The notes: a model not told the origin generated them from the letters alone. Shown: positions 23,102-39,737, numbered from the stretch's first letter. The stretch: DNA of 64,000 nucleotides from an uncultured Clostridia bacterium (GCA_934747965.1 CAKVHI010000001.1:65703-129702); one strand, 5' to 3'. Translations and numbers: made by a program.

Positions 23102-23176
23102 GCTACTGTGGCTCAGCGGTAGAGCACTGCCTTGGTAAGGCAGGGGTCACGGGTCCGATTCCCGTCAGTAGCTCCA
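23102..23176 (+). tRNA. tRNA-Thr (anticodon GGT), complete, CCA encoded
   Basis: A hand-folded cloverleaf. Acceptor GCTACTG/CAGTAGC; D arm GCTC-AGCGGTA-GAGC; anticodon arm CTGCC-TTGGTAA-GGCAG; T arm ACGGG-TCCGATT-CCCGT. A hairpin terminator follows. Confidence 0.85.
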
Positions 23177-23305
23177 CTTATTAAAAATCGCTAAAACCCT
23201 TTATTTTCCTAGGGTTTTGGCGATTTTTTTTCTCATTTTTTAACAAAATTTTTTAGGTAAAAAAATATTTGCTGTCAATTTTTGGTGCAATTGCTGTCAA
23301 ATTAT

Positions 23306-24673
23306 TTACATCTCAAAATCTTTTTCTTTTCTTCTGCGTTTGCGTTCTTGCAATTTTTCAAGTTCACGAATTTGGCGTTCTATTTCTTCATCAGATAATT
23401 CATCATCAATTTCTTGTTCAACTTCTCGCTCTTGTTCATGCTCTTGGATTTTGGTGTTTAATCTATCGGTGGCTTCTCTTACATATTCACTATTAACCGA
23501 GTTGTAGACAGTGATTGTAGTTTTCACATCACGGTGTCCTAAAAGTTGTTGAATTACTTTCGGGTTTTCATTCATTTCAAAAAGCATATTTGAGAAAGTA
23601 TGACGAAGTCCGTGAAAGTGAATGTGGTATTTATTTAGTCCGTTTCTTCGTTTAAACCTATCAAAGATTACCCTTGTGCCATAATAAGTTCTATAACTTC
23701 CATTATCATTAGCAAATACAAATGAAGTCGGTGCAGTTAAAATTGCTGTTACATTTGGATTAGTTTCTTGTCTTTTACTTTGTTTTTCTTTCCATCGTTT
23801 TAAGGTTTCTAGGACAATATCCGTAACAGGAATATCTCTAACACTACAAGCAGTTTTCGTGTCACCAATAACAGTTGTGCGGTCTTTAACATTGCCTTGC
23901 TCATCAAACTTTAAAGTTTGAGTAATTGCTCTTTCAATTTTTATTGTCTTATTTGCAAAGTCAATGTTTTTCCATTTAAGTGACAGAGCTTCACCAATAC
24001 GAAGCCCAGCAAACATTAAAGTAATGCAAAGTGGTTTGATAAAGTTTGCTTCATCTTTATTTAATGCATCTAAAAATTTATCTCTTATTTCAGGTGGCAA
24101 GGCTTTATATCTTTCATCACCATCTTCTTCATAGACATTTCTTTTGCCTTTAACCTTTACTTTCAAAGTTGGGTTGGTGTATATCCATTTATTTTCAATG
24201 GAATACTCAAAAAATTGATTTAATAAATGTTTACACTTCTTTATGGTGTCCACGCTATAACCTTGGTCTAAAAGAATATTTACGAATTTTTGAATTGTGT
24301 AATTGTCAATTTCATAGACTTTCATTTTGCCGATATGTGGAACAATATGCAACTTAAAGTTTCTAATATTACCTTCAAAAGTTCGTGGACTTACAGTGCT
24401 TTTTTTGAATGTCATAAGATATTCAAACATCATTTTTTCAAGGTTGCTATTTTCAACAAGTCCGTAAGAATTGCTTTTAACTCTACCACTTATTTCAGAT
24501 AATTTTTTAGCAACTTCAGCTTGTGTTTTTCCATAAATTGTTTTTCTAATAATCTTGCCGTTTTCATCATAGCCCATAGTTAAGGCTCCGCCCCAACGAC
24601 CATCGCTTCTTTGAAATATTGAGCCTTCGTTGTTGGCTCTGCGAGTTTTGCTTACAACTTTCTTTCTAGCCAT
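23306..24673 (-). CDS. int: Tyrosine recombinase / phage-type integrase
   Basis: AGLRIGE, HGLRHTF and LLGHRDVKTTITVY (catalytic Tyr). It also has an unusual ~60-aa highly charged E/R/K-rich C-terminal tail. Confidence 0.9.
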   Translation of the reverse strand: MARKKVVSKTRRANNEGSIFQRSDGRWGGALTMGYDENGKIIRKTIYGKTQAEVAKKLSEISGRVKSNSYGLVENSNLEKMMFEYLMTFKKSTVSPRTFEGNIRNFKLHIVPHIGKMKVYEIDNYTIQKFVNILLDQGYSVDTIKKCKHLLNQFFEYSIENKWIYTNPTLKVKVKGKRNVYEEDGDERYKALPPEIRDKFLDALNKDEANFIKPLCITLMFAGLRIGEALSLKWKNIDFANKTIKIERAITQTLKFDEQGNVKDRTTVIGDTKTACSVRDIPVTDIVLETLKRWKEKQSKRQETNPNVTAILTAPTSFVFANDNGSYRTYYGTRVIFDRFKRRNGLNKYHIHFHGLRHTFSNMLFEMNENPKVIQQLLGHRDVKTTITVYNSVNSEYVREATDRLNTKIQEHEQEREVEQEIDDELSDEEIERQIRELEKLQERKRRRKEKDFEM

Positions 24674-24929
24674 TTTGCACCTCGCTTTGGTTGTTGTTTA
24701 GTGTGAGCCAAGTAACAAAATTTAGCACACTCACAACTTGTCGTTTGCCAACTTTGGTTGTTGGGAAAGATTTGCTTCTAAGCAAGTTCCTAACATTATC
24801 TCTGCCAAGTCCAGTAATTTTGATAAGGTCTTCGCAATCCAAAAAATCTTTGTTGTATTTAGTTGAAATTCGGTCAACTTCCGATTGTATTAAGTTGTTT
24901 AAATTTAGATTTGTATTGTTTAAATTCAT
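24666..24929 (-). CDS. xis: Excisionase-type HTH DNA-binding protein
   Basis: An 87-aa protein with an 8-nt overlap with int. The HTH string is LIKITGLGRDNVRNLLRSKSFPTTKVGKRQVV. Confidence 0.6.
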   Translation of the reverse strand: MNLNNTNLNLNNLIQSEVDRISTKYNKDFLDCEDLIKITGLGRDNVRNLLRSKSFPTTKVGKRQVVSVLNFVTWLTLNNNQSEVQNG

Positions 24930-25220
24930 AGTTTAATTTTCCTTTCATAGTTTAAATTTAACTCCTTTCTAAAACATATTTTTTATCTCTTTCTAAATCT
25001 AAATTTATTAAAATCTATTCGCATCGAGCGTAATAGAAGTAGCAACTTTGTTGCCAGTAAGAAGTGTTGGGTATCCCAACAGCTTCCAAAAATGACGAGT
25101 AAACATAGTAAATTTAAGTGTATCAGTTAAAAGTGCCGATTTTATCGGGCTTTTACGCACTAAATTTAGTAATTGTTTCTCGCTTATGCTCTATACTAAA
25201 TATCTACCTAAAATGCTATT

Positions 25221-25682
25221 CTACATCTCAAAATCACTAGATAAATAGCCTTCATCAATGAGTGTTTTAATTCGCATTTCTTCCAGCTTTCTCATATAGT
25301 CCTGAAAACACTTAATTGCTTCGTATTCACACTTTGAATTTAGGTACATACAATGTTCAAGTTCTTTCCAAAGTTTGTCTTTTTGCATTCGCTTTTGGAC
25401 TACATATTTTGCGTTAAGTTTTAATCTTTCAATCTCTTGACCTTTCAAACTTTTAGCACTTTCAATCACCAAATTCCCAAGCCTGCGATACAAGTCTTTT
25501 GTATATTTTTCACTCAGATTTTGTTGTGGTTTTGGGGCGCCATTTCGCTTGCAGTAACTATCTACCAATTTTTGTTTTTCTTCCACAAGGTCATCAAAAT
25601 CATTTTTGTAAATACTAATATCAACATTATGGGAGATAATATAGTTTGAAATGTTGTCAATATTTGGTTTGATTTTTTGCAT
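25221..25682 (-). CDS. Hypothetical protein (island mob module)
   Basis: An ORF in an operon-like arrangement, with a hairpin plus T-run downstream at about 25136-25160. No recognised motifs. Confidence 0.4.
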   Translation of the reverse strand: MQKIKPNIDNISNYIISHNVDISIYKNDFDDLVEEKQKLVDSYCKRNGAPKPQQNLSEKYTKDLYRRLGNLVIESAKSLKGQEIERLKLNAKYVVQKRMQKDKLWKELEHCMYLNSKCEYEAIKCFQDYMRKLEEMRIKTLIDEGYLSSDFEM

Positions 25683-25709
25683 ATTATCGCAGTCGTAAAA
25701 TGTGTGTCC

Positions 25710-26420
25710 TTACTCTGGAAATTGATTTGCTAAATCTAGTAGCATTTGCTTTAATTTAAGCCCAGAAACATCGTTTAATCGCCCTTTAACACTCTTAGTT
25801 AGTCTTAACCTTATTTCTTTCTCACGAGCCTTAAAATCGGTTGCAGAGAGTTCAATATTGGCTTTCAAAAAATCCATTGCATTGTTTGAAATATAGCCAC
25901 GAGAAAAATGCTTTTCTTTGTTTTTCATTCGCTGTGGTTCTTTCTCAAAAAACAACAAATGAATATGTCTATTGTCAGTATTCTCGTGTAGTCCAGCAAA
26001 CCACTCTATATTGTCGGGATTTAGTCCAGCCCGTTTGAAATATCTTGGCAGTTCGCTTTTTACAAGTTCGTAAGCTTGTTCATAACAGCCACACCATTTC
26101 TTGCCAAAGTTTTCTTCAAAGGAAATAATGCCGGACCAAATAACCGATTTAGTTTCTCTTAAATTCTTTCTAAAATCTGCAATTTGTTCTTTGCTCATAA
26201 GTCCATTTTGGTTAAAGATTCCACTAGACTTTGTGCTGTTGTTTGAATACTCAACAAAGTCCAATTTTTCCAAATCTTTAATGCCAGTAGCAACATATTT
26301 TAGGTAGTCGTCATACTTGTTAGATGAGTAATAATTTCGCTTGTCTTGATTGGTTTTGTCTTTGTAGTTAGGCAAAAAGAACTCTTGTTTGTAAACCACA
26401 TTTGGAACTTTATCTAACAT
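25710..26420 (-). CDS. MobL-like relaxase (short form)
   Basis: The histidine triad-like LHENTDNRHIHLLFFE (H-x-D/E...H-x-H) and SGIFNQNGLMS / VIWSGIISFEE resemble Firmicutes MobL relaxases. Confidence 0.5.
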   Translation of the reverse strand: MLDKVPNVVYKQEFFLPNYKDKTNQDKRNYYSSNKYDDYLKYVATGIKDLEKLDFVEYSNNSTKSSGIFNQNGLMSKEQIADFRKNLRETKSVIWSGIISFEENFGKKWCGCYEQAYELVKSELPRYFKRAGLNPDNIEWFAGLHENTDNRHIHLLFFEKEPQRMKNKEKHFSRGYISNNAMDFLKANIELSATDFKAREKEIRLRLTKSVKGRLNDVSGLKLKQMLLDLANQFPE

Positions 26421-26871
26421 CTATTAGCTCCCTTAAAATCCTATCTCGTTCGGTGTCAATTCCATTTTCATCTAGTGGTTCATATTTCCATCCTTGCGAG
26501 TAAGCGTTTAGATTTATAGGGCTTTGTTTGTTGAGTAGTTTAGTGATTAAATTAAGCAGTGCTTGATTTATTCTCACATTTGCATTAGTATCCACAAAGT
26601 CCATTTTTTGGTTTGCAGATATGGTTGTGAGTTTGTCGTTTATCTCTTGCAAACTTTTTCTAATCTCGCTGAAATTTATGCTTTGGTTGAGTACATTATC
26701 TCCAAGCATTTTGTCAGCACCAAGCAAAGCAAAATATTTTATAGCGTCATTTAGGCTATCAAACTTGTCCTTAAACTTTTCAAGCGCTCGCTTAAAAATC
26801 TCATACTCATCTTGACTGTAAACTCTAATCATATATTGAGTTTTCAAATCTTTTGTTTTAATTCTAGCCAT
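26410..26871 (-). CDS. Hypothetical protein, possible relaxosome accessory (RHH-like N-terminus)
   Basis: An 11-nt overlap with the relaxase gene. The N-terminal TQYMIRVYSQDEYEIFKRALEKF looks like a ribbon-helix-helix beta strand plus helix. Confidence 0.3.
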   Translation of the reverse strand: MARIKTKDLKTQYMIRVYSQDEYEIFKRALEKFKDKFDSLNDAIKYFALLGADKMLGDNVLNQSINFSEIRKSLQEINDKLTTISANQKMDFVDTNANVRINQALLNLITKLLNKQSPINLNAYSQGWKYEPLDENGIDTERDRILRELIDVR

Positions 26872-27165
26872 TTTAGCCTCCTAATTATTTTCTAGTCTTT
26901 CTACATCTCTTTCTATTTCTAATTAAAGGGGCAATGATTGTTTTTGTTTGCTTTTACATTTTTAAAATCCTCCTTTTGTTTGAATTTACTTACACGAAAA
27001 AATACCTATCGGGGTAATAGGCAATATTTCGTTTTATCTCTTTCTACTAAATTTTTAATAAGAAAAAAACAATCTTGTAGTTCTGCAAACCAGTTTTCTT
27101 TCTTTATTAAATTTTCTTTCTTTATCTAACAAAACAAGAAAATATATATTTTTATTATTATATAT

Positions 27166-27209
27166 AAGAGTGGGGACGAACTCATTTAAGAGTGGGGACG
27201 AACTCATTT
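27166..27209. repeat. Perfect tandem duplication, 2 x 22 bp (AAGAGTGGGGACGAACTCATTT)
   Basis: Read directly: 27166-27187 is identical to 27188-27209. It is flanked by three copies of TTTGTTAGA(T/G) at 27124-27133 (reverse complement), 27213-27222 and 27272-27280. Confidence 0.9.
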
Positions 27210-27417
27210 TTCTTTGTTAGATATAAAAGTGTGTTTAGGTTGCTGACTTGAAAAAATTGCATTATTTTTTCTTTGTTAGAGATATTGCGGGAGCAAAGAA
27301 AAAGAACTATCTTTTGACAGTTCTTTGCTAATATATTTAGCTCCTACATATATAAGGACATTTTAAAGTGAAAAATTAAGTATCTTTTTTGAAAAATTTA
27401 TAAATTTTTTATTTTTT

Positions 27418-28167
27418 TTATTTTATTATTAATTGATTGCCTTTTCCTTCCAAATCAGTAATAAAATTATCTACCATTTTTAAGACTTGCACAACATTTC
27501 CTTTAAAGTTCTTTAAGTTTTCAAAATGTGCTTCAATGCCATAATCAGCAAAGGTTTTATTTGTTTGTTTTATCCAATTATCATCAAGGTTAGAATAATC
27601 TATTTGTTTGGATAATTGTTCTCTAATGCTCATATTTGATTTGGTCATAATGCTGTGGGTTATTGCTTTTCTTATTTCTTTTATAAGATTTTTAACTTCA
27701 TTTAAGTCAATAGAAAGCATTCCTTTTTGTCTTACTTCTCGCAAATAGGCATTAAACAGATATTCAGCTTCAGATTGAAATTTATCATAAAAGGAAGATT
27801 GAGAAAATATTTCGTTGTTACATAGTATTGTTCGATAATTGTATATAATTTTTTCAAGCCTTTGATTTATTGCACTTGAGCTAATATTAAAATTTTTAGC
27901 AATAAGATTTTGTTTTATACCGGAAAGATATTGACACAAAATCAACTTGTCTTGTCCTTGCAATTTTGCCAAGCTTTCTTTCAAAATTTGTTTATCTATC
28001 TTTGCCACCATTTGGTCAACAATATCCATATTTTCATGCAATGAATGTTCGTTTAAATATCTTTCCAAATAGTCTTGACTTTGCCCACCTTGGATAGTAG
28101 AAAAATTAACTTCATGTCTTCTAATTTTTCTTTCTAAACTTTCTTCTTTGATTTCTTTTTCTCCCAT
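27418..28167 (-). CDS. HTH protein with a sigma-70 region-4-like segment
   Basis: LILCQYLSGIKQNLIAKNFNISSSAINQRLEKI. It has its own extended -10 (TGGTATAAT, reverse complement at 28186-28194) and an AGAGGT RBS before MGEKE. Confidence 0.5.
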   Translation of the reverse strand: MGEKEIKEESLERKIRRHEVNFSTIQGGQSQDYLERYLNEHSLHENMDIVDQMVAKIDKQILKESLAKLQGQDKLILCQYLSGIKQNLIAKNFNISSSAINQRLEKIIYNYRTILCNNEIFSQSSFYDKFQSEAEYLFNAYLREVRQKGMLSIDLNEVKNLIKEIRKAITHSIMTKSNMSIREQLSKQIDYSNLDDNWIKQTNKTFADYGIEAHFENLKNFKGNVVQVLKMVDNFITDLEGKGNQLIIK

Positions 28168-28271
28168 ATTGATACCTCTAAATTCATTATACCATAAATT
28201 AATCAAAAGCATTGGGGTTTTAGCATAAAATTATAAAAACACTCAATCGTTTAAAATTGAGTGTTTGCTAT

Positions 28272-30179
28272 TTAATTAGATTTCATTTCTAATTGATGAG
28301 GTTCTTTTAAAGCTCTATCAATTATATTTTCAGTACTTATATTATCATAATGTTCTCTTAAAGAATCTCTTAATTTAAATAATCTGTTTCTAGATGTCTC
28401 TATTAATTGGCCAAATGTTACAGCGAAAATCCGACCACTTGATGTTTCTTTTTTAGCATCGATATCTCCAAGTGTATTGCCGACAACATAAGCTGTAATT
28501 TCTGCATCTTTATGTAATACTGCACTTTTTTTAATTTGTCTAACATAATATTCTACTTGTGCAACTTCTTCTGGAGTAATTTCAAACCCTCCACGTTTAA
28601 CTTCAATTATTAGGATTTGATCTGGTTTCATTAATTTAGCATCACTGTCCATTTTATCAGAACACACTGCTTTTAATGAATATTTTTTTAAACAAACAAT
28701 ATCAGGTCTCTTTTTAGAATTTTCTATTTCGGTTAAATCATAATCTTCATCTTTAAACAATTCTTTCACAACCGTTGAAAGTGTTTTATTTGATGTAAAC
28801 ATTGGAGAATCAAACTCGGCACCAAATAGCCATCTTGAATTTAAAATAATTGGGTGGATAGTATGTAACTCATCTATAGTTTTATCTTCTCCTAATCTTT
28901 CAAGTGTCTCAATTACAACAATTCTTTTATCAATTTCATCTAAAACAGTTGCAATATCCTCAATCGTCCATTCATTAAGTATATCCGATAATTTGTTTAA
29001 AGAATCTTCTTCCATCGAATTTAATTGTTGAAGAAGTCTTTCTCCGTTTTTTGATTTTTCAATTTTTGCAAAAGTTTCAACTGCAAGTTTCAAAAATTCC
29101 GGATTTATGACTGGATTTTGTTCAGTAATTTCTTCAAGAAATTTAGATATGTCACGTTTGCCAGAAATACTTAAACCTTCAACTTCATCACGTACACCTT
29201 TAATAATATCATATTGTACGGATTCAATTTGGTCTTTCATAATCATTTTAATCAATTTATTGATATATGGTTCTAATCTATCAAAAAAGTTATTAGTAGT
29301 ATCATTATTATAAAATCCTGACCAATCTGGCAAAATGAATTCTTCTATATCATCCGATTTTATAACAATTGTGTATTTTTTAGCTAATCTTAACCTACCA
29401 TCTATAAATTGAATATTATTATAAGACCAAGATGGACTACCGACTAAACGATTACTAACCCAAAAAGCAAGTCCATGTTGCTGATTTTTAATTGCTGTTT
29501 TTGTTGAGTCAATCATTATAATTTTTAAATTGTATTTATTTAACAATGTTATTTCTTCTTGATAAACAATTCCTTTATGCTCCATCAAATCTATTTGATT
29601 TCCATTAAGTTTTACTGAAAATTGTGGGTCATACAAAAATCGTACGGATAAAATTTCCTTAATTTGTTCAAAATCAGGTACATGTCTGCTAATTTCAGTA
29701 CTTATTTTTGTACCATGTCCTTTTTTCTCGCTTATTTGATGCTCCGTAATTTTATATGGAGCATCTCCTTCACTTATTTCGATTTTATATTTATTTAATA
29801 TACCATCTTTCCAAGTTTCAACAAAATAATAATCTGAGAAACAAAGCATACCATGTCTACCAATTCCGTTTCTTCCATAAGGTTTGCGAATTGTTTTGTC
29901 GTCAGCATTTGGGAATACTACATTATCACCTTGTTGTTTTCTGCGATTATAGTTTAAAGTCATCCATCTAGCACGAAATTCTTCATCAGTCATTCCAGTC
30001 CCATCGTCTTCAATAGAAATTGTTTGTCCTATTTCATATGGGATTCTAATATCAACATTATAGGCTCCAGCATCCCATGAATTTGAAATAAACTCTGTTA
30101 AAGCAATATCAGGAATAGATGTGATATTTTTATGATTTCTAAACAAATATCCTTGTTCAAATCTTATTCCATTACTCAT
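28272..30179 (-). CDS. GHKL (MORC/HATPase_c_3-like) ATPase fused to a C-terminal PD-(D/E)xK nuclease-like domain
   Basis: GHKL N-box EFISNSWDAGA, G1 box EDDGTGM and G2 box GRNGIGRHG. The C-terminus has WLFGAEF ... RPDIVCL ... ILIIEVKRGG (D...E-x-K), reminiscent of Shedu/DUF4263-type nuclease domains. Confidence 0.7.
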   Translation of the reverse strand: MSNGIRFEQGYLFRNHKNITSIPDIALTEFISNSWDAGAYNVDIRIPYEIGQTISIEDDGTGMTDEEFRARWMTLNYNRRKQQGDNVVFPNADDKTIRKPYGRNGIGRHGMLCFSDYYFVETWKDGILNKYKIEISEGDAPYKITEHQISEKKGHGTKISTEISRHVPDFEQIKEILSVRFLYDPQFSVKLNGNQIDLMEHKGIVYQEEITLLNKYNLKIIMIDSTKTAIKNQQHGLAFWVSNRLVGSPSWSYNNIQFIDGRLRLAKKYTIVIKSDDIEEFILPDWSGFYNNDTTNNFFDRLEPYINKLIKMIMKDQIESVQYDIIKGVRDEVEGLSISGKRDISKFLEEITEQNPVINPEFLKLAVETFAKIEKSKNGERLLQQLNSMEEDSLNKLSDILNEWTIEDIATVLDEIDKRIVVIETLERLGEDKTIDELHTIHPIILNSRWLFGAEFDSPMFTSNKTLSTVVKELFKDEDYDLTEIENSKKRPDIVCLKKYSLKAVCSDKMDSDAKLMKPDQILIIEVKRGGFEITPEEVAQVEYYVRQIKKSAVLHKDAEITAYVVGNTLGDIDAKKETSSGRIFAVTFGQLIETSRNRLFKLRDSLREHYDNISTENIIDRALKEPHQLEMKSN

Positions 30180-30194
30180 TTAAAATCCTCCATA

Positions 30195-33100
30195 CTATTT
30201 TGTTTTTGATTTATTAACTCTATCATTAAATTTTTCTACAAATTTGTTAATTATATAATTTTGCATTTCATGAGAAATCTCAAGTTCCTTGAAAAGAAAT
30301 GCATCAATCCTTTTATGATGATCTGTTTCTAACTCTTCGGTAGCATTTAATACTTTTATATCTGAAGTTTCTATCATTAATTTTTTTATCTCTTCAACAT
30401 TATTAAATTCAAAATATATAGGAAATTGTTTTAAATCCACAGCTTCCGCTTTTAACATTCCTCCACCAAGGCTTTTTCTTCCAGACATCTCTCTTATCAA
30501 CCAAAATAATGTAGAATTCATAAATATCCATAAGTTTGGTAGATATTTGTCTTGATTTAAATATATATCTACACAACTAGCAGAATATCCTTTGTTTGAA
30601 TTAATTGAGCAGAAATGTTTTCCTCCAACACCTCGTGGTAAAATTAAACTAGGCTTGTTTCTTTTTGTTTTAATTTCGTCAAAAACTTTAATCCCATTTT
30701 GATTAATTTGTTTAACTTGTTCTCCACTTAGTTTTTCATTAGACAATATATATGTTTTAGTTGTCTTCCAATCATAAAAACCACTTTCATCAACGTTTAG
30801 ATATGGTATTAAATTTTCTTTAGTTATAAATTTTGGGATGTCTGTGATTACATAGTCTTTGGTTATATTAAGACCTTGTCCTATCTTTAACCAATTAACT
30901 TCATTCTCTTTTTTACCGACTTTGTTTAGGGATTGCATTAAATTTAGAAATTCAATATCTGAATTAAACAAAAATCCCCATTTATTATTTGTTATCAAAT
31001 CACTATCTTTACTAAATTTCTTTATTGTAGCATCTTCATTTATTTCATTGGAATTATTTTCTACTGGGAAATGATAGTCTATAAAACTTTTATGGCAACG
31101 GGCAAAAACCACATCTTTTTTGCAGCCCTTGTTTCCTTCAAAAAAAGTTATTACTGTATTAATATTTGCCGATTCAAAAGCTTTGAAATCACTATCAATA
31201 ATTGCCAACACATTCGTCATATTTAACAAAAATTGTTGAAATTTAGCACCATATTCAGTGTCCAACCAAGAATTTTGAGTAATAAATGCATTTATTCCGT
31301 CTGGTTTTATCATTCGCAAACTTAATTCATAGAAATAAATTAACAAATCTGAACCACGTGTAATTAAATCAAACTTTTTGCCATATCTTTGTTTTAGTTG
31401 TTTTTGTAAAATATCCTTTTCCCAATCCGGAAAATTACTATTCCTTGCCTCTAAATATGGTGGATTCCCTATAACAATATCGAAACCATCTTTTACGCCA
31501 AACATCCAGTCTGCATCAAACCAATTCGTGGATTCATTTTCAAATGGTTTCCAAGAAGATAATTGTTGGTATCTAACAGAAGCTTGCTTTTGGTAATTTG
31601 CAATTGTATTCAAAAGCATATCTTGCTGAATGTCTTTAAATTCTAATTTCAATTCCGTCCTGCGATCACTTTCAGCATTAAAATATTCATCTCTAACTGC
31701 TTTTAAACGATTAATATGATCTTCATTTTCAAATAAGGACATTTGTGAATTTTCCTCAAGGCCAATTAATGAATTAGCTATAATAAATTTAAAATCCAAA
31801 TTTGGGAGTGGGTTAATGCCTCGGTTATATTCTTCATCTTTTACTTTTTCTTCAATTACCAATGATAGGAAACATCTTAATCTTGAAATTTCAACAGCTA
31901 TTGGTTGAATATCTATACCAAAAATTGAATTCTGAATTACACTCAATTTTCTTATGTAATTTAATGACCCATCATTAAATTTCTTTTCAAATTCTTTTTT
32001 CAATAGGATGCTTACATTTTCAGTTGCTTTGTCGAACCACAAATCTGCATTTGGGTCAACTTCTTGTAATATATAAACAATTTTTTGAAGCATGCCAATA
32101 GGGAAGGCTCCAGAACCACAAGCAGGATCTAATATGGTAACATTATATAAAGCATTTATTATTCTCTTCTTTTCAGATAAATCAAAGGTTGCAATAGTGT
32201 CATCTTCCTTACCATAACTGATTAATGCTTTTAACCTTAATTGGTCAATACCAGACTCCTTTTTTAAATATTCACAAAGGCTTGTATCAACCATATAATC
32301 AACAATATCTCTTGGCGTATAAAAACTGCCAGTGCTCTTTTTTGCGTTTTCTCCAGTCTCAGGGTTAATCTCTGCGAGTAAATTTTCAAAAATTCTGCCA
32401 AGCATTTCAGGATCAATAGATAATTCAATATCATATGAAGTATTTTCATCAACGGTAAAGTTATACTGATTTAATACTTCATAAAATTGTTTAAACCAAT
32501 CATTTGGAATTGTTACGAGTCCGTATTGACCACATTGAGTGAGTTTATCGTATCTATATAAATCATCATTGTGGGGGCTAAACAAGCCACCATTCAAATA
32601 AGGAATTTGTTTATATTCATTGCCAATATATTTGTCTTTACGTTTTTCTTGTTTTGTATTTAACAACTCAAAAAATAATGGTTCTAGTATCTTGTGATAA
32701 TAATTGTCTTGATTATTAATTTCATCAATTGTTAAGTACTTTTCTGGAATTAAAGGAATTCCGTTTTCACTCTTTTTTTCTTTTAAAAACCAACAAAATG
32801 TTATCCTTCCTATAAGTCTAACAGCAAATTCTGCATATTTTTTCTGATCAATCACTCCATGCAAATTAAGTTGTTTATCAAATTTTTTACCATCTCTTTC
32901 ACCACCAACTAATTTACTATAACACAGTGCGATTTCATTATAAAATTGTTTATTAACTACTTCAACCGAAAATCTTTCAATTAATTCTTCAAGATTATTT
33001 ACTTTTCCTTTTTCAATTAAAAATTTATAGGCTGTCTTAGTTTTAGTTCCAAAACCCAAACTATAAGAAAATCTTCTAGGATTAGACAAAACTCTGACAA

Positions 33101-33464
33101 TTTTATTTCCGTCATATTCATATTTACTCGTTAACAAGGAAATACGATAATTCATTTCATCAGGATTTACAAAAGAAACTAAAGCATTATCTATGCGAAA
33201 ACTTCTCAAAATTTTAAACATTTCTTGAGTAATTGCAACTCTTTTGTTTTTTGAACCCTCTTTTAAATATACTTCGAAAACAGTTAAATTGCAAAGAGAA
33301 GATTCTCCAAGTTGTTTTACGGATTGAAATATTCCATTATTAAAGTGCACATCATGTTTAGAATTTGCAAAATCAGGTAACAAGAGTTCATTTACTAAGT
33401 AAATGAAATTGTCTAAATGATATTCATGTTTTAATATTTCTTCAGCATCTTTAATTGATATCAT
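30195..33464 (-). CDS. Large N6-adenine DNA methyltransferase (Eco57I / PglX-like gamma-class)
   Basis: FYTPRDIVDYMV, SAM motif LDPACGSGAFP and catalytic motif VIGNPPYLEA. It has long N- and C-terminal extensions (1089 aa). Confidence 0.85.
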   Translation of the reverse strand: MISIKDAEEILKHEYHLDNFIYLVNELLLPDFANSKHDVHFNNGIFQSVKQLGESSLCNLTVFEVYLKEGSKNKRVAITQEMFKILRSFRIDNALVSFVNPDEMNYRISLLTSKYEYDGNKIVRVLSNPRRFSYSLGFGTKTKTAYKFLIEKGKVNNLEELIERFSVEVVNKQFYNEIALCYSKLVGGERDGKKFDKQLNLHGVIDQKKYAEFAVRLIGRITFCWFLKEKKSENGIPLIPEKYLTIDEINNQDNYYHKILEPLFFELLNTKQEKRKDKYIGNEYKQIPYLNGGLFSPHNDDLYRYDKLTQCGQYGLVTIPNDWFKQFYEVLNQYNFTVDENTSYDIELSIDPEMLGRIFENLLAEINPETGENAKKSTGSFYTPRDIVDYMVDTSLCEYLKKESGIDQLRLKALISYGKEDDTIATFDLSEKKRIINALYNVTILDPACGSGAFPIGMLQKIVYILQEVDPNADLWFDKATENVSILLKKEFEKKFNDGSLNYIRKLSVIQNSIFGIDIQPIAVEISRLRCFLSLVIEEKVKDEEYNRGINPLPNLDFKFIIANSLIGLEENSQMSLFENEDHINRLKAVRDEYFNAESDRRTELKLEFKDIQQDMLLNTIANYQKQASVRYQQLSSWKPFENESTNWFDADWMFGVKDGFDIVIGNPPYLEARNSNFPDWEKDILQKQLKQRYGKKFDLITRGSDLLIYFYELSLRMIKPDGINAFITQNSWLDTEYGAKFQQFLLNMTNVLAIIDSDFKAFESANINTVITFFEGNKGCKKDVVFARCHKSFIDYHFPVENNSNEINEDATIKKFSKDSDLITNNKWGFLFNSDIEFLNLMQSLNKVGKKENEVNWLKIGQGLNITKDYVITDIPKFITKENLIPYLNVDESGFYDWKTTKTYILSNEKLSGEQVKQINQNGIKVFDEIKTKRNKPSLILPRGVGGKHFCSINSNKGYSASCVDIYLNQDKYLPNLWIFMNSTLFWLIREMSGRKSLGGGMLKAEAVDLKQFPIYFEFNNVEEIKKLMIETSDIKVLNATEELETDHHKRIDAFLFKELEISHEMQNYIINKFVEKFNDRVNKSKTK

Positions 33465-36400
33465 TTCTTAAATCCTCCGTAAACATAATAATTTCTGATT
33501 GTGCGTCTATACTTTCAACTTTTTCTTTTATTTGAACAATATAATGGACAGGTATTTTCGATTTCAAATCATCAATTATTTCTTTTATATTATTTTTTCT
33601 TATAGTTAATTTTGATAAATACTTTAATTCGCCATCACTCAAATCATCATATGTTTTAATAACATCAAGCAAATCAGATAAATAATCCTTTTCACTTGGA
33701 CAAACCACTTTTAATTGTTCCAAATTGTCTATTGCCGTGCCTTTTCTTTTATCTAAACGAATTTTAGGATAAGGCTTTCTTATTTCGTCACGTAATATTG
33801 CAAATTTTTTATCTAGATTTTCATCATACTCATAGCTCGGTTCGTCTTGCTTAGCTTTAAAAAGTCTTAAAACTCTTTCAGGGGCAACTATTTCTGCTCT
33901 GTTTTCATAAGGGTGAGCAATAGCAAATAATGCAGTATTTCCTCTTTTTGCAAAAGATATTGCACATGGTTCTGGCTGATTTTTTCTTACAATTCTTGCT
34001 CTTTCAGGAATTTTAAGAGTTTCATCTATGAATGTTGTGTTGTGTTTGATTGAATTATAAATATTTTTAAAATCATTATCCCAACTTTTCTCATTGTTTT
34101 CAGCATTCGCTTCATCATATTGAGATTTGAAATAACTTTGTAAAGTTTCATCAGGTGTCAATGTTCTTGTATCGCTACCAACAATATTGTTTATCAAAAA
34201 CATTTTTAAAGTAGAAATACCTTTGATTAGTGTATTCTGTTCACCAATGTCTGTTGGAAAAAGATTAAATATAAATATTTTATCGAACATCTTTCTGTTA
34301 ATACGATTGATACGACCAATTCTTTGAACAACTCTTGTTGGATTGTATGGAATATCATAGTTGATAATAACACCAGCTCTATTCAGGTTGAAACCTTCAC
34401 TCAAAGCATCTGTAGCAACAATTATATCGTAATCATTCAATTGTTCACCTTGTTTATAAGAAGCATCAAAATTTTGTTTTACAATATTTCTATCAATCTT
34501 AGATGAACCACCAGTATATATTAGAACTCTATAATTATCATCTTCAAGACGCTGTTTTACATATTCTGCAGTATCCGCAAAAGTAGAGAAAATAACAATT
34601 TTACGATTTTTATTTTCTTTTAATAGATAATTTATTTTTCTGCTGATTTCATTGTATTTTGGGTCTTCACCAACTTCTTCAGTAGCAAACCATTCATGAT
34701 AAATTCCTTTAAGTAAATCAATATCACTTTCAATTGCATGAATAAAATCTTCTTTAAACAATTCTCTAGGGATTGGAATAGCTTTTTTCTTGATTTTATC
34801 CACATCGATTGGTTCATTATCTATGCTATTGATTTCTTCAAGGGTTTCCATTATTTCGTCATCGTTTGGGTCTGATAAATATCCACTTTTCTTAATTGGG
34901 ACATATCCTTTAGCCCACCATTTTTTAATGTTTTCATAAGAACTAAATAAACTTGTCAATGTTGATTTAAATGCTGCTTTAGAACTTTCGAAACGCATAA
35001 CAAGTAATCTTTTAATAAATTTAGCAAGGTTGCCTTGGAATAACTGAATGTTCATTTCACCGAACAATTCACCATACTTTTTATTAAATTCTTGTGGATT
35101 AATCAAGTAAGCAGATGGATTATATCTGGCACAGATAAATTGATTACTTAGTTTATCTAATGTAGATAAATATAATTGCCTAATTTCTCCTAAATCATAT
35201 TCAACAAGTTCTGGGCCTACAACTTCAGGAAATTGAATGTTTTGCATTTTTAAATCTTCTGCATATTCTTTAACTTCCTGCAAATCAAGTCTAGAACGTC
35301 TAACAATTACAGGGTCTATTAATATTCTTAGTTCTTCACTTAATTTATCTAATTCTTTCTTTATTGCTGCTGTAAGATTTTTCTTACCTTCTTTTTCTAA
35401 CTTATTATATTTAGCAATTAATTCATGAAATCTTACGCCTAAGTTATCAACAGAATTTAAAGTTGACCTACTTGGAGTTTGGAATAACTTAATCAAAGCA
35501 AATAAATCTTGTGGTCTATTGTTATATGGCGTAGCAGTTAAAAGAATGACTTTGTTTTCTGCATTAGAACGTGTTAATTGGTGCAACCATTGATAGCTAT
35601 CGCTTAATTCGTTTCTATATCTATGAGCTTCATCAATTATGTATAAAATAGGGTCTGGGTCAGTAGCATACTGTCTATACAATTCTTCCATTCTACCGCT
35701 ACTACAAACTTTTACACCACGCAGTCCAAAGTCTTGTTGATATTCATTCCATTGGTCAACAAGGTGTGGTGGAGCAATAATAACCGTTTTCCTCAAATTT
35801 AAGTTATAAGCAATTGCAGAAGCAATAACAGATTTACCAAGACCAACGACATCGGCAACAATTACACCATTATTTTTGTTAATACAATCAACACCATATT
35901 TAATAGCATCTAATTGATATTTTAAATTAGAGAACTTGCCATTGGTTATCTCTGTTGGAGCAATAATATTACTTTTGTCTAATGAGTTATAAAGTTCAAA
36001 TAAAATACGAATGAAGATATGGTATGGACTTGGTTGAGCAAAGACCCATAATTTCTTTTTAAGTTCATTTTCAAATTCTTTATTCCCATCTTTAATGCAA
36101 ATATCGATAGATTTACTATCGTTCCATAACTGCTCAAAACTTCCCATATATTCTTCATATTTACTGTTGTCGCTAAATCTTTCATTCATCTCGCCTTGTC
36201 CAAGCAATCCATTGTATGTAAAGTTAGATGAACCTGTAAACACAACACCCTTCTGGTCGCCAAAGCAAGAATATTCTGGCTTATTAGTTAGAATATATGC
36301 CTTAGCATGATTTTGAGTTGCAGTTAATCTTATTTCAAGAGAACCATCCTTAATTTTACTCAAAAACATTTTAAAAACTTGTTGGCTATCGGTAGAGTCA

Positions 36401-36744
36401 AATTCTTCTGATAATGCAGATTTATTAAATAAGTTTATAAAACTTTCCACATAAGAGTTTTTCTTTTGTGAATTATTTAATTTACTGTAACCTCTAACAG
36501 CATATGTTTCCAACAACTCATCTGGACTATCTTTTACCGCATTACATAAATCTTGTATTGCATTCGGATCAATAGTATTGCCAACCAAAATTCTAATCTT
36601 CTTGTCTTTTAATTCATCAGCAAGTGCATTAAATCCAGAAAAATAGAAGAATGCTGTTAATATATCTACACTTTCAGCTTGTTTTAAAGAATTTTTCAAA
36701 GATTCCAGCATTGTTTTGTTTTTATTATCTATTATAGATGCCAT
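33451..36744 (-). CDS. PLD-family (single HKD) nuclease domain fused to an SNF2-family helicase
   Basis: N-terminal HKD motif NHAKAYIL...TGSSNFT. Helicase motifs DVVGLGKS (I), IIDEAHRYRN (II), LLTATPYNN (III) and QRIGRINR (VI). Confidence 0.85.
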   Translation of the reverse strand: MASIIDNKNKTMLESLKNSLKQAESVDILTAFFYFSGFNALADELKDKKIRILVGNTIDPNAIQDLCNAVKDSPDELLETYAVRGYSKLNNSQKKNSYVESFINLFNKSALSEEFDSTDSQQVFKMFLSKIKDGSLEIRLTATQNHAKAYILTNKPEYSCFGDQKGVVFTGSSNFTYNGLLGQGEMNERFSDNSKYEEYMGSFEQLWNDSKSIDICIKDGNKEFENELKKKLWVFAQPSPYHIFIRILFELYNSLDKSNIIAPTEITNGKFSNLKYQLDAIKYGVDCINKNNGVIVADVVGLGKSVIASAIAYNLNLRKTVIIAPPHLVDQWNEYQQDFGLRGVKVCSSGRMEELYRQYATDPDPILYIIDEAHRYRNELSDSYQWLHQLTRSNAENKVILLTATPYNNRPQDLFALIKLFQTPSRSTLNSVDNLGVRFHELIAKYNKLEKEGKKNLTAAIKKELDKLSEELRILIDPVIVRRSRLDLQEVKEYAEDLKMQNIQFPEVVGPELVEYDLGEIRQLYLSTLDKLSNQFICARYNPSAYLINPQEFNKKYGELFGEMNIQLFQGNLAKFIKRLLVMRFESSKAAFKSTLTSLFSSYENIKKWWAKGYVPIKKSGYLSDPNDDEIMETLEEINSIDNEPIDVDKIKKKAIPIPRELFKEDFIHAIESDIDLLKGIYHEWFATEEVGEDPKYNEISRKINYLLKENKNRKIVIFSTFADTAEYVKQRLEDDNYRVLIYTGGSSKIDRNIVKQNFDASYKQGEQLNDYDIIVATDALSEGFNLNRAGVIINYDIPYNPTRVVQRIGRINRINRKMFDKIFIFNLFPTDIGEQNTLIKGISTLKMFLINNIVGSDTRTLTPDETLQSYFKSQYDEANAENNEKSWDNDFKNIYNSIKHNTTFIDETLKIPERARIVRKNQPEPCAISFAKRGNTALFAIAHPYENRAEIVAPERVLRLFKAKQDEPSYEYDENLDKKFAILRDEIRKPYPKIRLDKRKGTAIDNLEQLKVVCPSEKDYLSDLLDVIKTYDDLSDGELKYLSKLTIRKNNIKEIIDDLKSKIPVHYIVQIKEKVESIDAQSEIIMFTEDLRNDIN

Positions 36745-36814
36745 AATTATCTCCTATTTTCAATCATTATAACACATAATTATTATAATTTATATATAAT
36801 AATTAAAATTTTTC

Positions 36815-37537
36815 TTAATCTTCCAACACAACCACATTCACTTTATGTGAATAGGTAGTGCAAGCGTCTATGGCTATCATATTTTTTGTTATGAAAGGTT
36901 CAAAATTGGCCTTATCTCCAAATTCTTCGTATTCGTCTGGATTTTGTTCGTGCCATAATGCAGAACAATGCCAATGTCCACAAACTATTGTTTTGTTTGG
37001 TTCGTAGATTTCATATCTATACATTTCTACTGGGTTTATCCAGCGAGCCTTTTCCCAACGTTCTTTTCTTGCTGTTCGCCAATCACTATCATACAAATAG
37101 CAATTTTCAATAATTGGTATCCAGCCGTGAACGAATATGTAATGTTTTGTTTCGTAGTAATCAATACACATATCTAGAACTTCTTGGAGTCTAGTTTCTT
37201 TTGGTATCTTTTTAAGGTCAAATTCACTTATTTGCCACTCTGGATACAAATCAACAATTGTTTGTGCTGTTCCATTACAAATGTCGCCATAATCACTTGA
37301 ATTTCTTTCAATCATTTGTTCCATCAAGTCTTCGTGATTGCCACGAATAAGAATTACTTTATCTTTGTGTTTTAGAACAAAATCTATAATTTCTTTTGGT
37401 TGGTTTCCTCTATCGAACAAGTCGCCACAAAGAATTATTTTGTGTTCAGGATTGCTTATATCAAATCCTTTTTCTTTTAATGCTGACTGCCATTCATCAT
37501 AAAATCCATGAATGTCGCCAGATACAAAATATTTCAT
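36815..37537 (-). CDS. Calcineurin-like metallophosphoesterase (Ser/Thr phosphatase-like)
   Basis: GDIHG, GDLFDRG, GNHE and GHWH motifs. Confidence 0.8.
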   Translation of the reverse strand: MKYFVSGDIHGFYDEWQSALKEKGFDISNPEHKIILCGDLFDRGNQPKEIIDFVLKHKDKVILIRGNHEDLMEQMIERNSSDYGDICNGTAQTIVDLYPEWQISEFDLKKIPKETRLQEVLDMCIDYYETKHYIFVHGWIPIIENCYLYDSDWRTARKERWEKARWINPVEMYRYEIYEPNKTIVCGHWHCSALWHEQNPDEYEEFGDKANFEPFITKNMIAIDACTTYSHKVNVVVLED

Positions 37538-37551
37538 AAAAACCTCTAATT

Positions 37552-38418
37552 TTAAACTGACTGTAATTTTTTTGTTATCTCAATAAAAAATTCTTTACTC
37601 CACAAATCAAGTTTTGTTTTATCTTTTATGAAAGGCAAAACATCTTGTTTTGCTTGCTCTATATCTAGATTTTCAAATCTTTCGTTTAGTAATGCTTTTA
37701 AATTATCAATAGTTAAATCATAATTTTCATTAATAAACTTTGACTGAACCAACTTTGCTTTCAAATTTTCCAAATTCACTTTTGCACCGATTGACAAAAA
37801 GAAAATATAATCGTAAAAATCTCTACCTTTCACTCTTGATTTCCAATTCCTGCAAAGGCAAGCATGAATTTTACCTGCAAATAATGATTGCAAATCGTAT
37901 AATCTTACTTGATAAGGAGAAGGCAACAGTCCAAACTTGGTTTCATAAGTTGCACCAGTTGGTGGGTTAATGTCCACTTCAAACTTAATTCGTATAGCTT
38001 CTTCTTTATTGATAAATTTAGAATCTTCACTATCTTCATAGAAAGATAAAATATGTTCTTTTGTGTTACCCTTTAAGAATGCAGATTTTATATTGGAATC
38101 AACAGATTTAATTTTCTCTGTCACATTGAAATTTAAGCCAAGTGATTTTGTCTCGTTTTCAATATATTGAAAATATTTGGTTAAATCAAAATCTGGATTT
38201 TGTGTTATTAATGAAAAATCTAAATCTTCACTAAATCTATCCAATCCATAAAATATTCTTAGTGCAGTTCCACCATAAAATGCTGCTTCTTTAAAAAATC
38301 CACCACGAGATAGTCCACAAAGAACGATTTCTTGAACAATTTCTTTTATGGCATTCTTCTTATCTTCGATATTGTTAATTTGATATTTTGATAACATCTG
38401 GCTTAATACTTGTTGCAT
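37552..38418 (-). CDS. abiEii: AbiEii/AbiGii-family nucleotidyltransferase toxin (type IV TA)
   Basis: FYGGTALRIFYGLDRFSEDLDFS, and a position immediately after an AbiEi-like gene. Confidence 0.8.
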   Translation of the reverse strand: MQQVLSQMLSKYQINNIEDKKNAIKEIVQEIVLCGLSRGGFFKEAAFYGGTALRIFYGLDRFSEDLDFSLITQNPDFDLTKYFQYIENETKSLGLNFNVTEKIKSVDSNIKSAFLKGNTKEHILSFYEDSEDSKFINKEEAIRIKFEVDINPPTGATYETKFGLLPSPYQVRLYDLQSLFAGKIHACLCRNWKSRVKGRDFYDYIFFLSIGAKVNLENLKAKLVQSKFINENYDLTIDNLKALLNERFENLDIEQAKQDVLPFIKDKTKLDLWSKEFFIEITKKLQSV

Positions 38419-38419
38419 T

Positions 38420-39007
38420 TTACTTTTCTCCTTTAATAAATTTTACAAGTAAATTTAAGTTTGTTGAGTGATATAGTGGCGCAAGTTTTAAAATGTCTTG
38501 CTTGTTTAATTCGTTAAACTTGTCTTCATCTATTCTTAAATCTTCAAATAGCAATCTTTCTAAATCTTTAATAGTTTTCACGGGAGATATAGTATAAAGT
38601 TTATCGCAAAGCGCTTTTTCTGCTGTTGCCATTTGATATGAATATTCTTCATCTTGAAAAGCAAGGACTCCCAAACTAAATACCGCTTTAGGAACATCTC
38701 TATAAATAAAAGTTCCAAAACTATTTGTATATGTCTTAATTTTTTTCTTATTGTAGGTTGCACATGTAAATGTGTTGTAAACCGCTTCGGGAATTAATCC
38801 TTGCTGATACAAAACATAATCAAAGGATAAATAAGATGGCCCATAAATAAATTGTGCAAGTCTTGAACCATTAGTATTTGGATTGGTTTCATAAATTCCT
38901 TTAACCAAAGGAAATAATTTTCCTTGTATTACATCTCTATTTATTTTTGCTATTGGATTTGAATAATTAGCATATTGTTCTTTTAATTGTTGAGTTGTGA
39001 CTATCAT
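38420..39007 (-). CDS. abiEi: AbiEi-family antitoxin / transcriptional regulator
   Basis: The N-terminal winged-helix-like region ending LVKGIYE and its pairing with abiEii. The start is taken at MIVTTQQL, preceded by GGAGGG. Confidence 0.7.
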   Translation of the reverse strand: MIVTTQQLKEQYANYSNPIAKINRDVIQGKLFPLVKGIYETNPNTNGSRLAQFIYGPSYLSFDYVLYQQGLIPEAVYNTFTCATYNKKKIKTYTNSFGTFIYRDVPKAVFSLGVLAFQDEEYSYQMATAEKALCDKLYTISPVKTIKDLERLLFEDLRIDEDKFNELNKQDILKLAPLYHSTNLNLLVKFIKGEK

Positions 39008-39014
39008 ATATTCC

Positions 39015-39114
39015 CTCCAGATAATGCAATTATATAATATTATCTGGAGAAAATCAACCAATTTCACGATATTTTCTCCAAATAATGCAGTAAAAGTGCA
39101 TTTTCTGGAGAAAA
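39015..39114. promoter_or_regulatory. Two palindromes built from four copies of TCTCCARAWAAT upstream of abiEi (candidate operator)
   Basis: IR1 is CTCCAGATAAT (39015-39025) against ATTATCTGGAG (39039-49). IR2 is TTTTCTCCAAATAATGCA (39072-89) against TGCATTTTCTGGAGAAAA (39097-114), with 2 mismatches. Confidence 0.5.
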
Positions 39115-39338
39115 TATGGTTTTGTAAAAAATCAATTCACATAGTTTAATGATATAAACTTAACTGGCTTCAACAAATTTTATATCATTGCAATGATACA
39201 GTTTCTCAAAAAGCATATAAATTTGGGATAATTTATAAGCACACTGAAAAACTTTCAAACTTTCACTAGCAAAGTATTAGATATTTTTAGGCGATTTTAG
39301 ACAGGTTTAAAAAGACATAAATGTTGAGAAAAGTGCGT

Positions 39339-39737
39339 GTAGGTACATGTAGGTACATAGGTTTGAAATGGTTATGTACCTAATAAGAAAAATACTAGCG
39401 ATTTTGCTAGTATTTTAGGCAATTGTAGGAGATAGGATTGAAGTTTTTTAAAAATATTTTTAAGTTGGTAAGGCAGGGGTCACGGGTCCGATTCCCGTCA
39501 CCAGCTCCATTAAATAAAAGTCGCTAAAACGCCGATAAATAAAGGCTTTTAGCAATTTTTTTATTTGCAAATTTTTAGAGCACGACTCTCTTCAAAAAAT
39601 ACATTAGGTACACAAAATTGTCATTTTAGGTACACAAAAATCGCATAAAAAAAGACCGAAAATTGAACTTGCCAACTTTCGGTCTAATTCTCTCTAAAAC
39701 TGCCCAAAACTACTACGTTAGGTACATTTAGGTACAC
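39339..39737. repeat. Seven copies of TAGGTACA(Y) flanking the tRNA 3' fragment
   Basis: Copies at 39339-48 and 39349-58 (tandem), 39374-82 (inverted), 39605-13, 39627-35, 39719-27 and 39729-37. Confidence 0.85.
39465..39509 (+). pseudogene. 3' half of the disrupted tRNA-Thr (anticodon loop to CCA), right island junction
   Basis: Positions 39465-39500 are identical over 36 nt to 23132-23167 of the complete tRNA. They are followed by the acceptor 3' strand CACCAGC, which pairs with GCTGGTG at 23002, and then a hairpin terminator. Confidence 0.8.

Follow-up and report, generated by a model that had tools for sequence, protein, structure and literature searches.

The locus described here raises the question whether three tightly packed genes make up one defence system or more than one. 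The genes are located on the minus strand of a 64,000-nucleotide (nt) stretch of DNA from an uncultured Clostridia bacterium (GCA_934747965.1 CAKVHI010000001.1:65703-129702), referred to in the following as the window; positions given without the name of another locus are counted from its first letter. Together they span 8.5 kb and encode an HKD nuclease domain of the phospholipase D (PLD) type fused to a SNF2 motor (the helicase), an N6-adenine (m6A) DNA methyltransferase (the methylase), and a GHKL ATPase with a nuclease-like C-terminus. An earlier note on this sequence had grouped all three into a compact, methylation-linked defence module. Within a comparison set of about 190 related loci, the helicase-methylase part of that module is conserved and the three-gene unit is not. 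We therefore consider it probable that the block consists of two separate defence units on one transcript, namely a two-gene pair resembling a restriction-modification (R-M) system and a GHKL-nuclease. The block comprises:

33451-36744, minus strand: HKD(PLD)-SNF2 nuclease-translocase, core gene 1, 1097 amino acids (aa)
30195-33464, minus strand: gamma-class N6-adenine DNA methyltransferase, core gene 2, 1089 aa
28272-30179, minus strand: GHKL ATPase-nuclease gene, the rider, 635 aa
28237-28266, minus strand: intrinsic-terminator-like hairpin with a 12-bp stem and a T-run, 6 nt past the GHKL stop

Conservation of the three genes across related loci

The arrangement of the block is as the earlier note described it. 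From the coordinates of the open reading frames (ORFs), helicase and methylase overlap by 14 nt, and 15 nt separate the methylase from the GHKL gene; all sequence motifs quoted in that note for the three proteins are found in the translations. Full-length homologues number hundreds to thousands for the helicase and for the GHKL protein, and 26 full-length methylase homologues were recovered beside helicase homologues. Together with the conserved catalytic residues in all three proteins, this identifies the ORFs as real genes rather than chance reading frames.

Conservation of the arrangement was assessed from both ends. The helicase-anchored set, with one genome per GTDB species, consists of 47 loci (55-96% helicase identity) from Clostridia, Christensenellaceae, Saccharibacteria, Elusimicrobiaceae and a metagenome-assembled genome (MAG) of Methanimicrococcus. 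The GHKL-anchored set, obtained from a scan of metagenomes and viruses, consists of 86 loci, 41 of which extend at least 3.5 kb upstream. A methylase homologue lies directly downstream of the helicase in all 37 helicase-anchored loci with enough sequence, and the overlap of helicase stop and methylase start is kept in 30 of 31 loci (mostly 14 nt, otherwise 4, 11 or 17). The pair is also present in many gut-metagenome clusters at about 80% identity. The GHKL gene is found in none of the 47 helicase-anchored loci, and neither helicase nor methylase is found in any of the 41 GHKL-anchored loci with sufficient upstream sequence.

The borders of homology point in the same direction. The DNA homology of L020 and L043 to the window stops at 30195/30180, the methylase stop, and the homology of L011 and L015 is confined to 28281-30190, that is to the GHKL ORF. 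Nor was the GHKL gene found beside two closer relatives of the helicase (P0129 and P0124, 89-92% identity). In P0129 the position after the methylase is occupied by an unrelated 787-aa gene, followed by an integrase and Kiwa; in P0124 this position is unreadable because the contig ends inside the methylase. The only lineage that shares the whole 8.5 kb is the closest GHKL lineage (L017-L019, 78.6% nt identity), where the gene upstream of the block differs (Fic). The earlier note had regarded missing co-occurrence in other genomes as a sign of chance juxtaposition, and outside this lineage the GHKL gene does not co-occur with the pair. The claim that all three genes form one system is not supported by the anchored loci or by the breaks of homology at gene borders, and the evidence from the loci instead favours the alternative mentioned in the same note, a GHKL-nuclease that rides independently in the manner of Shedu.

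Genomic contexts of the GHKL gene and the position after the methylase

Homologues of the GHKL gene occur as solitary genes in unrelated settings: beside serine recombinases and an HD-domain gene, beside DUF1016, in a phage-like element, near a type I R-M system, and beside a different pair of SNF2 and N6_N4 methylase genes. The commonest neighbour is a large serine recombinase (23 of 99 loci). No conserved partner was found, and the sigma-like gene that follows the GHKL gene in the window does so elsewhere in L017 and L018 only.

Several observations on individual contexts may be added. The GHKL gene immediately follows one or more large serine recombinases in L001-L004, L067-L071 and others, and is itself followed by an HD/HD_assoc (dGTPase-like) gene in 8 loci; these neighbours suggest a typical end-of-element cargo gene. 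The homologue of L011-L013 (82% identity) shares its contig with a fused Rpb2/Rpb1-like RNA-polymerase gene, an ADP-ribosylglycohydrolase, Macro and FtsK_gamma, and the contig may represent a large phage or a plasmid-like element. Homologues on Rhizobium/Agrobacterium (Ti/Rhizobium) plasmids, at 31% identity, are annotated only as 'ATP-binding protein'.

Seen from the pair, the position after the methylase is a variable, exchange-prone slot, into which the GHKL gene has landed. Its occupants elsewhere are:

L020 and L027: complete type IIG enzyme and a 198-aa gene
L043 and L036: PDC-M46A/B
L036: PDC-S02
L029 and L063: OLD-TOPRIM and UvrD, a Gabija-like pair
L044: KAP NTPase
L160-L162, 16343-18706: 787-aa gene, tightly packed, no Pfam or PADLOC match
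L049, 16622-18715: 204-aa and 491-aa genes, tightly packed, no Pfam or PADLOC match

By their position, the 787-aa gene and the 204-aa and 491-aa genes are candidate new defence genes. The genes upstream of the helicase vary as well (Fic in 10 loci, Schlafen/AlbA_2, AAA_14-DUF4143, AbiE, Abi_2). Such varied genes around the pair fit the pattern of embedded defence genes that is reported for Hma (helicase-methylase-ATPase), BREX, DISARM and type I R-M systems. As a separate observation, about 10 loci of Clostridia and Saccharibacteria, including L018, L032, L036, L048, L051, L054 and L158, have a Fic/DOC gene either immediately ahead of the helicase or a short distance further upstream; it is the commonest neighbour, though far from universal.

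The helicase and the methylase

The domains of the two proteins correspond to the following positions:

36124-36693, minus strand: PLD domain of the helicase, aa 18-207 (Pfam PLDc_2)
34249-35925, minus strand: SF2/SNF2 motor of the helicase, aa ~274-832 (SNF2-rel_dom, Helicase_C)
31425-33464, minus strand: conserved N-terminal region and catalytic domain of the methylase, aa 1-~680 (alignment of 27 homologues)
30198-31424, minus strand: variable C-terminal target-recognition region of the methylase, aa ~681-1089 (same alignment)

The helicase carries the Pfam domains PLDc_2 (aa 18-207), SNF2-rel_dom and Helicase_C, and its translation contains H146-x-K148, GSSNFT, GLGKS, DEAH and QRIGR, all of which are kept across 45 homologues. 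Domains and motifs thus agree with the description of gene 1 as a single-HKD PLD domain fused to a full SNF2 motor. At the 'D' position of the HKD motif, whose sequence is HAKAYILT, Asp is not conserved. The top PADLOC match is 'HKD+Snf2' C3a139 (4.8e-40, over aa 1-841), followed by DrmD (8.4e-38); the HmaA profile of PADLOC matches over the C-domain only. The best named profile in NCBIfam is DrmD (NF038317, 2.2e-46), and with 158.7 bits vs a cut-off of 610 the status of a DrmD equivalog is rejected. C3a139 is likewise rejected as a named system: the label denotes no more than one cluster in a survey that dealt with accessory genes of type III CRISPR (PMC6546367). Sequence searches against the PDB gave generic matches only, RapA and CHD for the helicase and TaqI and BseCI for the methylase. 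As to distribution, helicases 75-79% identical to the window protein occur in the Methanimicrococcus MAG (L053) and in an Elusimicrobiaceae MAG (L038), which reflects either a very recent cross-domain transfer or mis-binning of contigs.

The methylase matches the Pfam families Eco57I (3.6e-30), N6_Mtase, MmeI_Mtase and, weakly, MmeI_hel. DPACGSG (motif I) precedes NPPY, the order of the gamma class, and both motifs are invariant among the 27 homologues; the 1089-aa gamma-class adenine methyltransferase of the earlier note is thereby recovered. Residues 1-680 are conserved, whereas residues 681-1089, which follow NPPY, are unalignable between lineages, so that the C-terminus behaves like a swappable target-recognition domain (TRD). 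The PADLOC profile REase_MTase_IIG matches at 5.5e-82, with an alignment that begins at aa 163 and profile position 200, and an MmeI-type N-terminal nuclease domain was not found by Pfam even at E<=1. BREX_1_MTaseX (PglX) reaches 64.8 bits vs a cut-off of 500 in NCBIfam; PADLOC also matches PglX, and the DrmMI profile matches weakly. Alignment and motifs characterize the protein as a predicted N6-adenine methyltransferase of the gamma class, in which the catalytic core is conserved and the C-terminal TRD can be swapped.

These features also bear on whether the pair restricts DNA at all. It could instead act as an epigenetic or phase-variable regulator, or serve the mobile element that carries it in anti-restriction or DNA repair, a reading to which we assign a low probability. 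The nuclease activity of the pair is a prediction, the HKD motif lacks a conserved Asp, and the pair rides on mobile elements, all of which would be compatible with such a role. However, H146, K148 and GSSNFT are conserved in the 45 sequences, swapping of the TRD is typical of the arms races of R-M systems, the pair is consistently surrounded by defence islands (AbiE, Fic, Kiwa, Gabija-like, PDCs), and the closest profiles are DrmD, BrxH and type IIG/PglX.

The GHKL ATPase-nuclease

The GHKL protein combines a GHKL ATPase domain, a middle (S5-like) domain, a helical linker and a C-terminal nuclease region of the PD-(D/E)xK type:

~29310-30110, minus strand: ATPase and middle (S5-like) domain (AlphaFold 2 (AF2) model, motifs)
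28335-28874, minus strand: nuclease region, PD-(D/E)xK-type, aa 436-615 (motifs)

Pfam assigns HATPase_c_3 to aa 24-149 (2.5e-19), and the translation contains E29/N33, DDGTGM, GRNGIGRHG, RPDIV and IIEVKRGG, in agreement with the earlier description of gene 3 as a GHKL ATPase with an RPDIV...IIEVKRGG C-terminus. The family consists of 369 clusters (50% identity, E<=1e-30), the clade of the window protein being mainly from gut metagenomes of Bacillota. Among 116 cluster representatives, E29, N33, DxGxG, GRNGxGRH and HGT are conserved, as is the C-terminal pattern E437...RPD493...E526-x-K528...Q541xxxY545. In its ATPase and middle domains, the AF2 model (predicted local distance difference test score, pLDDT, 73) matches Hsp90/TRAP1, MORC2/3 and GyrB. 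The nuclease fold is unreadable from the full-length Foldseek search because the GHKL module swamps the matches, and the C-terminal domain alone yields a poor model (pLDDT 53.5). The profile of the whole family matches Hsp90 and MutL only in the PDB; the C-terminal profiles A2 and A3 gave nothing meaningful there, and no match to Shedu. PADLOC returns no SduA match for the protein, and one remote representative of the family matches SduA_C at E=0.011, below cut-off. In architecture the protein is paraMORC3-like and VcSduA-like, and formally no more than a candidate member of Shedu.

The best NCBIfam match of the GHKL protein is the BbrUII/HgiDII family (NF050001, 1e-29), whose members are likewise GHKL-containing nucleases of about 650 aa, and the PADLOC match is REase_II, a profile for type II restriction endonucleases. 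Together with the position of the gene next to the methylase, this would allow the GHKL-nuclease to be the cognate endonuclease of that methylase, as in type II systems of the HgiDII/BbrUII kind, the HKD-SNF2 protein being an accessory. We regard this as very improbable. The score of 103.6 bits is far under the family cut-off of 550; around most of the GHKL homologues in the range of 37-82% identity there is no methylase, let alone a conserved cognate one; and the methylase always accompanies the helicase, whereas it accompanies the GHKL gene in one lineage only.

Proposed mode of action and weighing of the two-unit reading

We read the pair as a putative, unnamed and conserved ATP-dependent R-M-like system, akin to a split type ISP or type III enzyme. 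In the proposed mechanism, the methylase would read a short asymmetric site and mark host DNA, and at unmodified sites it would recruit or license the HKD-SNF2 protein. From there the SNF2 motor would translocate on double-stranded DNA using ATP. Precedents for HKD nucleases are Nuc and BfiI. The single HKD half-site would have to pair with a second copy to give an active nuclease, so two complexes would be expected to dimerise or collide before cleavage, a scheme known from type ISP and type III systems. The GHKL protein, in turn, may dimerise into a clamp gated by ATP, with the C-terminal nuclease cutting the DNA of invaders; it would be a self-sufficient single-gene defence.

A number of observations weigh against the separation into two units, or against the functions proposed for them. 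The triad is kept across about 21% nt divergence in L017-L019. The 15-nt gap ahead of the GHKL gene contains a GGAGG ribosome-binding site, and a single terminator follows the gene, which makes co-expression likely: the hairpin at 28237-28266 is the only minus-strand terminator-like site between 39389 and 27326, and since none precedes it from 39389 onward, the GHKL gene is probably co-transcribed with the pair. A promoter scan found 73 sites vs 76.9 in shuffled sequence, and given this lack of an excess no internal promoter is claimed. As co-transcription is likely, some functional coupling or cross-talk of the GHKL gene with the pair is possible. Methylation, translocation and cleavage are all deduced from homology. 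The C-terminal ~260 aa of the helicase are conserved among the 45 homologues and have no family match, and the first ~160 aa of the methylase match no assigned domain. For the nuclease region of the GHKL protein, Foldseek matches of the C-terminal model (McrC, BbvCI, FokI, Mus81) are non-significant (E>=0.08), and HSDR_N_2 (10 of 12 homologues, best E 0.0035) and Cas4 (0.037) match weakly. SduA_C/DUF4263 (PF14082), a domain the earlier note had proposed to look for, is undetected in the GHKL protein and 12 close homologues even at E<=10.

The likely co-transcription is the main reason to allow for some functional coupling. In a single integrated system, self would be marked by the methylase, scanning would fall to the HKD-SNF2 protein, and the GHKL-nuclease would act as a dedicated or back-up effector. 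The slot behind the methylase would then hold exchangeable effector modules, a role suggested for the auxiliary effectors of BREX-related systems (PMC12839542). The operon-like packing, the shared terminator and the persistence of the triad in L017-L019 are compatible with this, as is the fact that every locus has a closely packed, defence-like gene in this slot; GHKL ATPases have, moreover, been predicted in R-M operons with SF2 helicases (PMC2292703). On the other side stand the lack of co-occurrence in the 47 and 41 anchored loci, the nature of the other slot occupants, themselves either known systems in complete form or candidates (type IIG, Gabija-like, PDC-M46), and the mostly solitary occurrence of the GHKL family, whose architecture is shared by VcSduA, a protein that works alone (PMC12137116). 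We consider a single system improbable. A similarly small chance is given to the idea that HKD-SNF2 protein and methylase form a self-marking 'platform' that licenses interchangeable effectors in the slot (the GHKL-nuclease, PDC-M46, type IIG, the Gabija-like pair or the 787-aa protein); if this were true, the triad would function as a single modular system of a novel kind and not be a juxtaposition.

Under the favoured explanation of two units on one transcript, the locus is of interest in several respects. The pair is widespread across phyla, since the 47 GTDB species genomes that carry it extend to Saccharibacteria, Elusimicrobia and a methanogen, yet it is nameless in PADLOC and NCBIfam, and no experimental study was found in the literature searched. 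Among ATP-dependent R-M layouts with an HKD nuclease it would be the most compact, and its hypervariable TRDs could be a source of new specificities for m6A methylation. For 'guilt-by-embedding', the slot behind the methylase is a natural site: as it already holds PADLOC candidates as well as unassigned genes, it is a cheap place to search for new defence genes. Finally, the locus cautions against defining a multi-gene defence system by nothing more than the tight packing of an operon.

The integrative element and its other genes

The block is part of the cargo of a 16.3-kb integrative element in tRNA-Thr, which also carries AbiE and a phosphoesterase. The features of the element are:

23102-39530: integrative element
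23102-23176, plus strand: tRNA-Thr (ARAGORN)
23132-23197: attL repeat, 3' half of tRNA-Thr (direct-repeat search)
39465-39530, plus strand: attR, 66-nt direct repeat (91%) of the 3' half of tRNA-Thr
23306-24673, minus strand: tyrosine integrase (Phage_integrase, 1.3e-26)
24666-24929: HTH_17 Xis-like gene (domain scan)
25710-26420 and 25221-25682, minus strand: MobL relaxase in two ORFs (Pfam MobL, profile 2-202 and 263-377)
27418-28212, minus strand: 264-aa helix-turn-helix (HTH) protein (TIGR02937, E 7.9e-6, below cut-off; TGGTATAAT upstream)
36815-37537, minus strand: calcineurin-like metallophosphoesterase (Pfam Metallophos, 8.7e-16)
37552-38418, minus strand: AbiEii (PADLOC, 8.8e-109, 361.2 bits)
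38420-39067, minus strand: AbiEi (PADLOC, 7.6e-59, 196.6 bits)

The att repeats, the integrase, the Xis-like gene and MobL together indicate an integrative mobilizable element. The split MobL relaxase is probably a frameshifted pseudogene, and judged from its gene content the element is, or was, mobilizable. The cargo upstream of the helicase is as the earlier note had it, with PADLOC and Pfam confirming AbiEi/AbiEii and the metallophosphoesterase, the latter separated from the helicase start by 70 nt. AbiEi antitoxin and AbiEii nucleotidyltransferase are encoded by adjacent genes, which is the definition of an AbiE pair. The metallophosphoesterase recurs upstream of the helicase only as a partial copy (65% of length) in L027, and is flanking cargo outside the core. 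Downstream of the block, the same note had placed a sigma-r4-like HTH gene with a sequence element of its own. This promoter sequence, TGGTATAAT, is present upstream of the gene, but the likeness to sigma factors is weak, the TIGR02937 match lying below cut-off. A homologue of this 264-aa gene (50% identical) is found in the same position in L017 and L018 only; the protein probably belongs to the element backbone or is a regulator.

Three repeats within or next to the element deserve mention. A 22-nt tandem direct repeat, ATATAAGAGTGGGGACGAACTC in two copies (95%, perfect register), is located at 27162-27205 between the relaxase-side genes and the sigma-like gene, and could represent a putative oriT or regulator-binding site. 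At 39008-39115, at and just upstream of the AbiEi start, there are two related 47-nt copies (77%), each with an inverted repeat TCTCCAGATAAT...ATTATCTGGAGA; the arrangement fits a putative operator for AbiEi autoregulation. A 46-nt segment at 22994-23039 is 87% identical to the 5' part of tRNA-Thr (23094-23139), 100 nt upstream of it. ARAGORN calls no gene there, and the segment may be a second or degenerate tRNA copy.

Comparison with known systems

The absence of a fitting named system, already asserted in the earlier note, holds in the scans: DrmA/DrmB, PglZ/BrxC and DUF499/DUF3780 are absent according to PADLOC, Pfam and NCBIfam, and literature searches for a named two-gene system of HKD-SNF2 and Eco57I-type proteins found nothing. 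DISARM class 1 consists of the SNF2 protein DrmD, the m6A methylase DrmMI and DrmA/DrmB, with or without the PLD protein DrmC. PLD, SNF2 and m6A methylase are all present in the pair; the PLD is, however, fused to the SNF2 protein here and is the separate DrmC there. DrmB/DUF1998 is absent among the genes of the island (PADLOC, Pfam, NCBIfam), and within the island DrmA is matched by nothing but the SF2 C-domain of the HKD-SNF2 protein. The BREX components PglZ and BrxC are absent from the island as well (Pfam, PADLOC), and the methylase scores below the PglX cut-off.

Type ISP enzymes (LlaGI/LlaBIII) unite nuclease, SF2 motor, gamma m6A methylase and TRD in one polypeptide, and type III systems (e.g. 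EcoP15I) combine a beta-class N6_N4 Mod with a ResIII helicase that carries a PD-(D/E)xK nuclease. With both, the pair shares a nuclease, an SF2 ATPase motor and an m6A methylase that has its own target-recognition region. Its Eco57I/gamma-class methylase with C-terminal TRD resembles type ISP and type IIG, the latter (MmeI-like) being an N-terminal PD-(D/E)xK nuclease fused to a methylase; its gene order and translational coupling resemble res/mod. The pair differs from type ISP in being split over two overlapping ORFs, from type III in its gamma-class rather than beta-class (N6_N4_Mtase) methylase, and from both in its nuclease, a single N-terminal HKD/PLD domain instead of PD-(D/E)xK/Mrr, and in its SNF2-type motor.

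A further likeness exists to the Hma systems, since reclassified as 'BREX-related' (BR; PMC12839542). In BR type 2 (ex-Hma), an N-terminal HKD endoDNase fused to a Swi2/Snf2 helicase is the effector and is accompanied by an N6-methylase (PMC12839542; PMC8565338; PMC11232893). The helicase of the pair shows the same HKD-Swi2/Snf2 fusion, and in both cases unrelated defence genes are often embedded or adjacent. At the centre of Hma/BR stand a DUF499 ATPase and DUF3780, and the methylase there is of the DUF1156 type (PMC12839542; PMC11232893); none of these is found in the window island or as a conserved neighbour in the 47 loci. An assignment to the PADLOC system Hma, which is DUF499/DUF1156-based, is rejected; the HmaA match is limited to the C-domain of the helicase.

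For the GHKL gene, the closest counterparts are single-gene systems. VcSduA of V. cholerae combines GHKL and PD-(D/E)xK domains and protects as a single gene, its defence being abolished by E27A and K557A (PMC12137116); GHKL-type Shedu is listed as class 1D by Gu et al. (bioRxiv 10.1101/2023.08.10.552793). The paraMORC3 proteins of Iyer, Abhiman & Aravind (2008) consist of GHKL, S5 and an RE-fold nuclease with an E-D-ExK pattern, are often stand-alone, and are described mainly in Proteobacteria and Bacteroidetes (PMC2292703). Compared by description, the GHKL protein shares with these classes its architecture and length, the Hsp90/MORC-like middle domain and a stand-alone, mobile occurrence, with Glu 29 as the putative catalytic residue vs 27 in VcSduA and nuclease Lys 528 vs 557. 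It differs from SduA in having no detected SduA_C, although the ExK, QxxxY and RPD motifs are present, and from paraMORC3 in the origin of its clade from Bacillota gut metagenomes. The motifs of the 116 representatives, the fold matches and the solitary contexts agree with paraMORC3 as described. On the basis of this match in architecture, the GHKL gene appears to be a new member of the paraMORC3/GHKL-Shedu class, and its clade would extend that validated class to gut Bacillota and their mobile elements.

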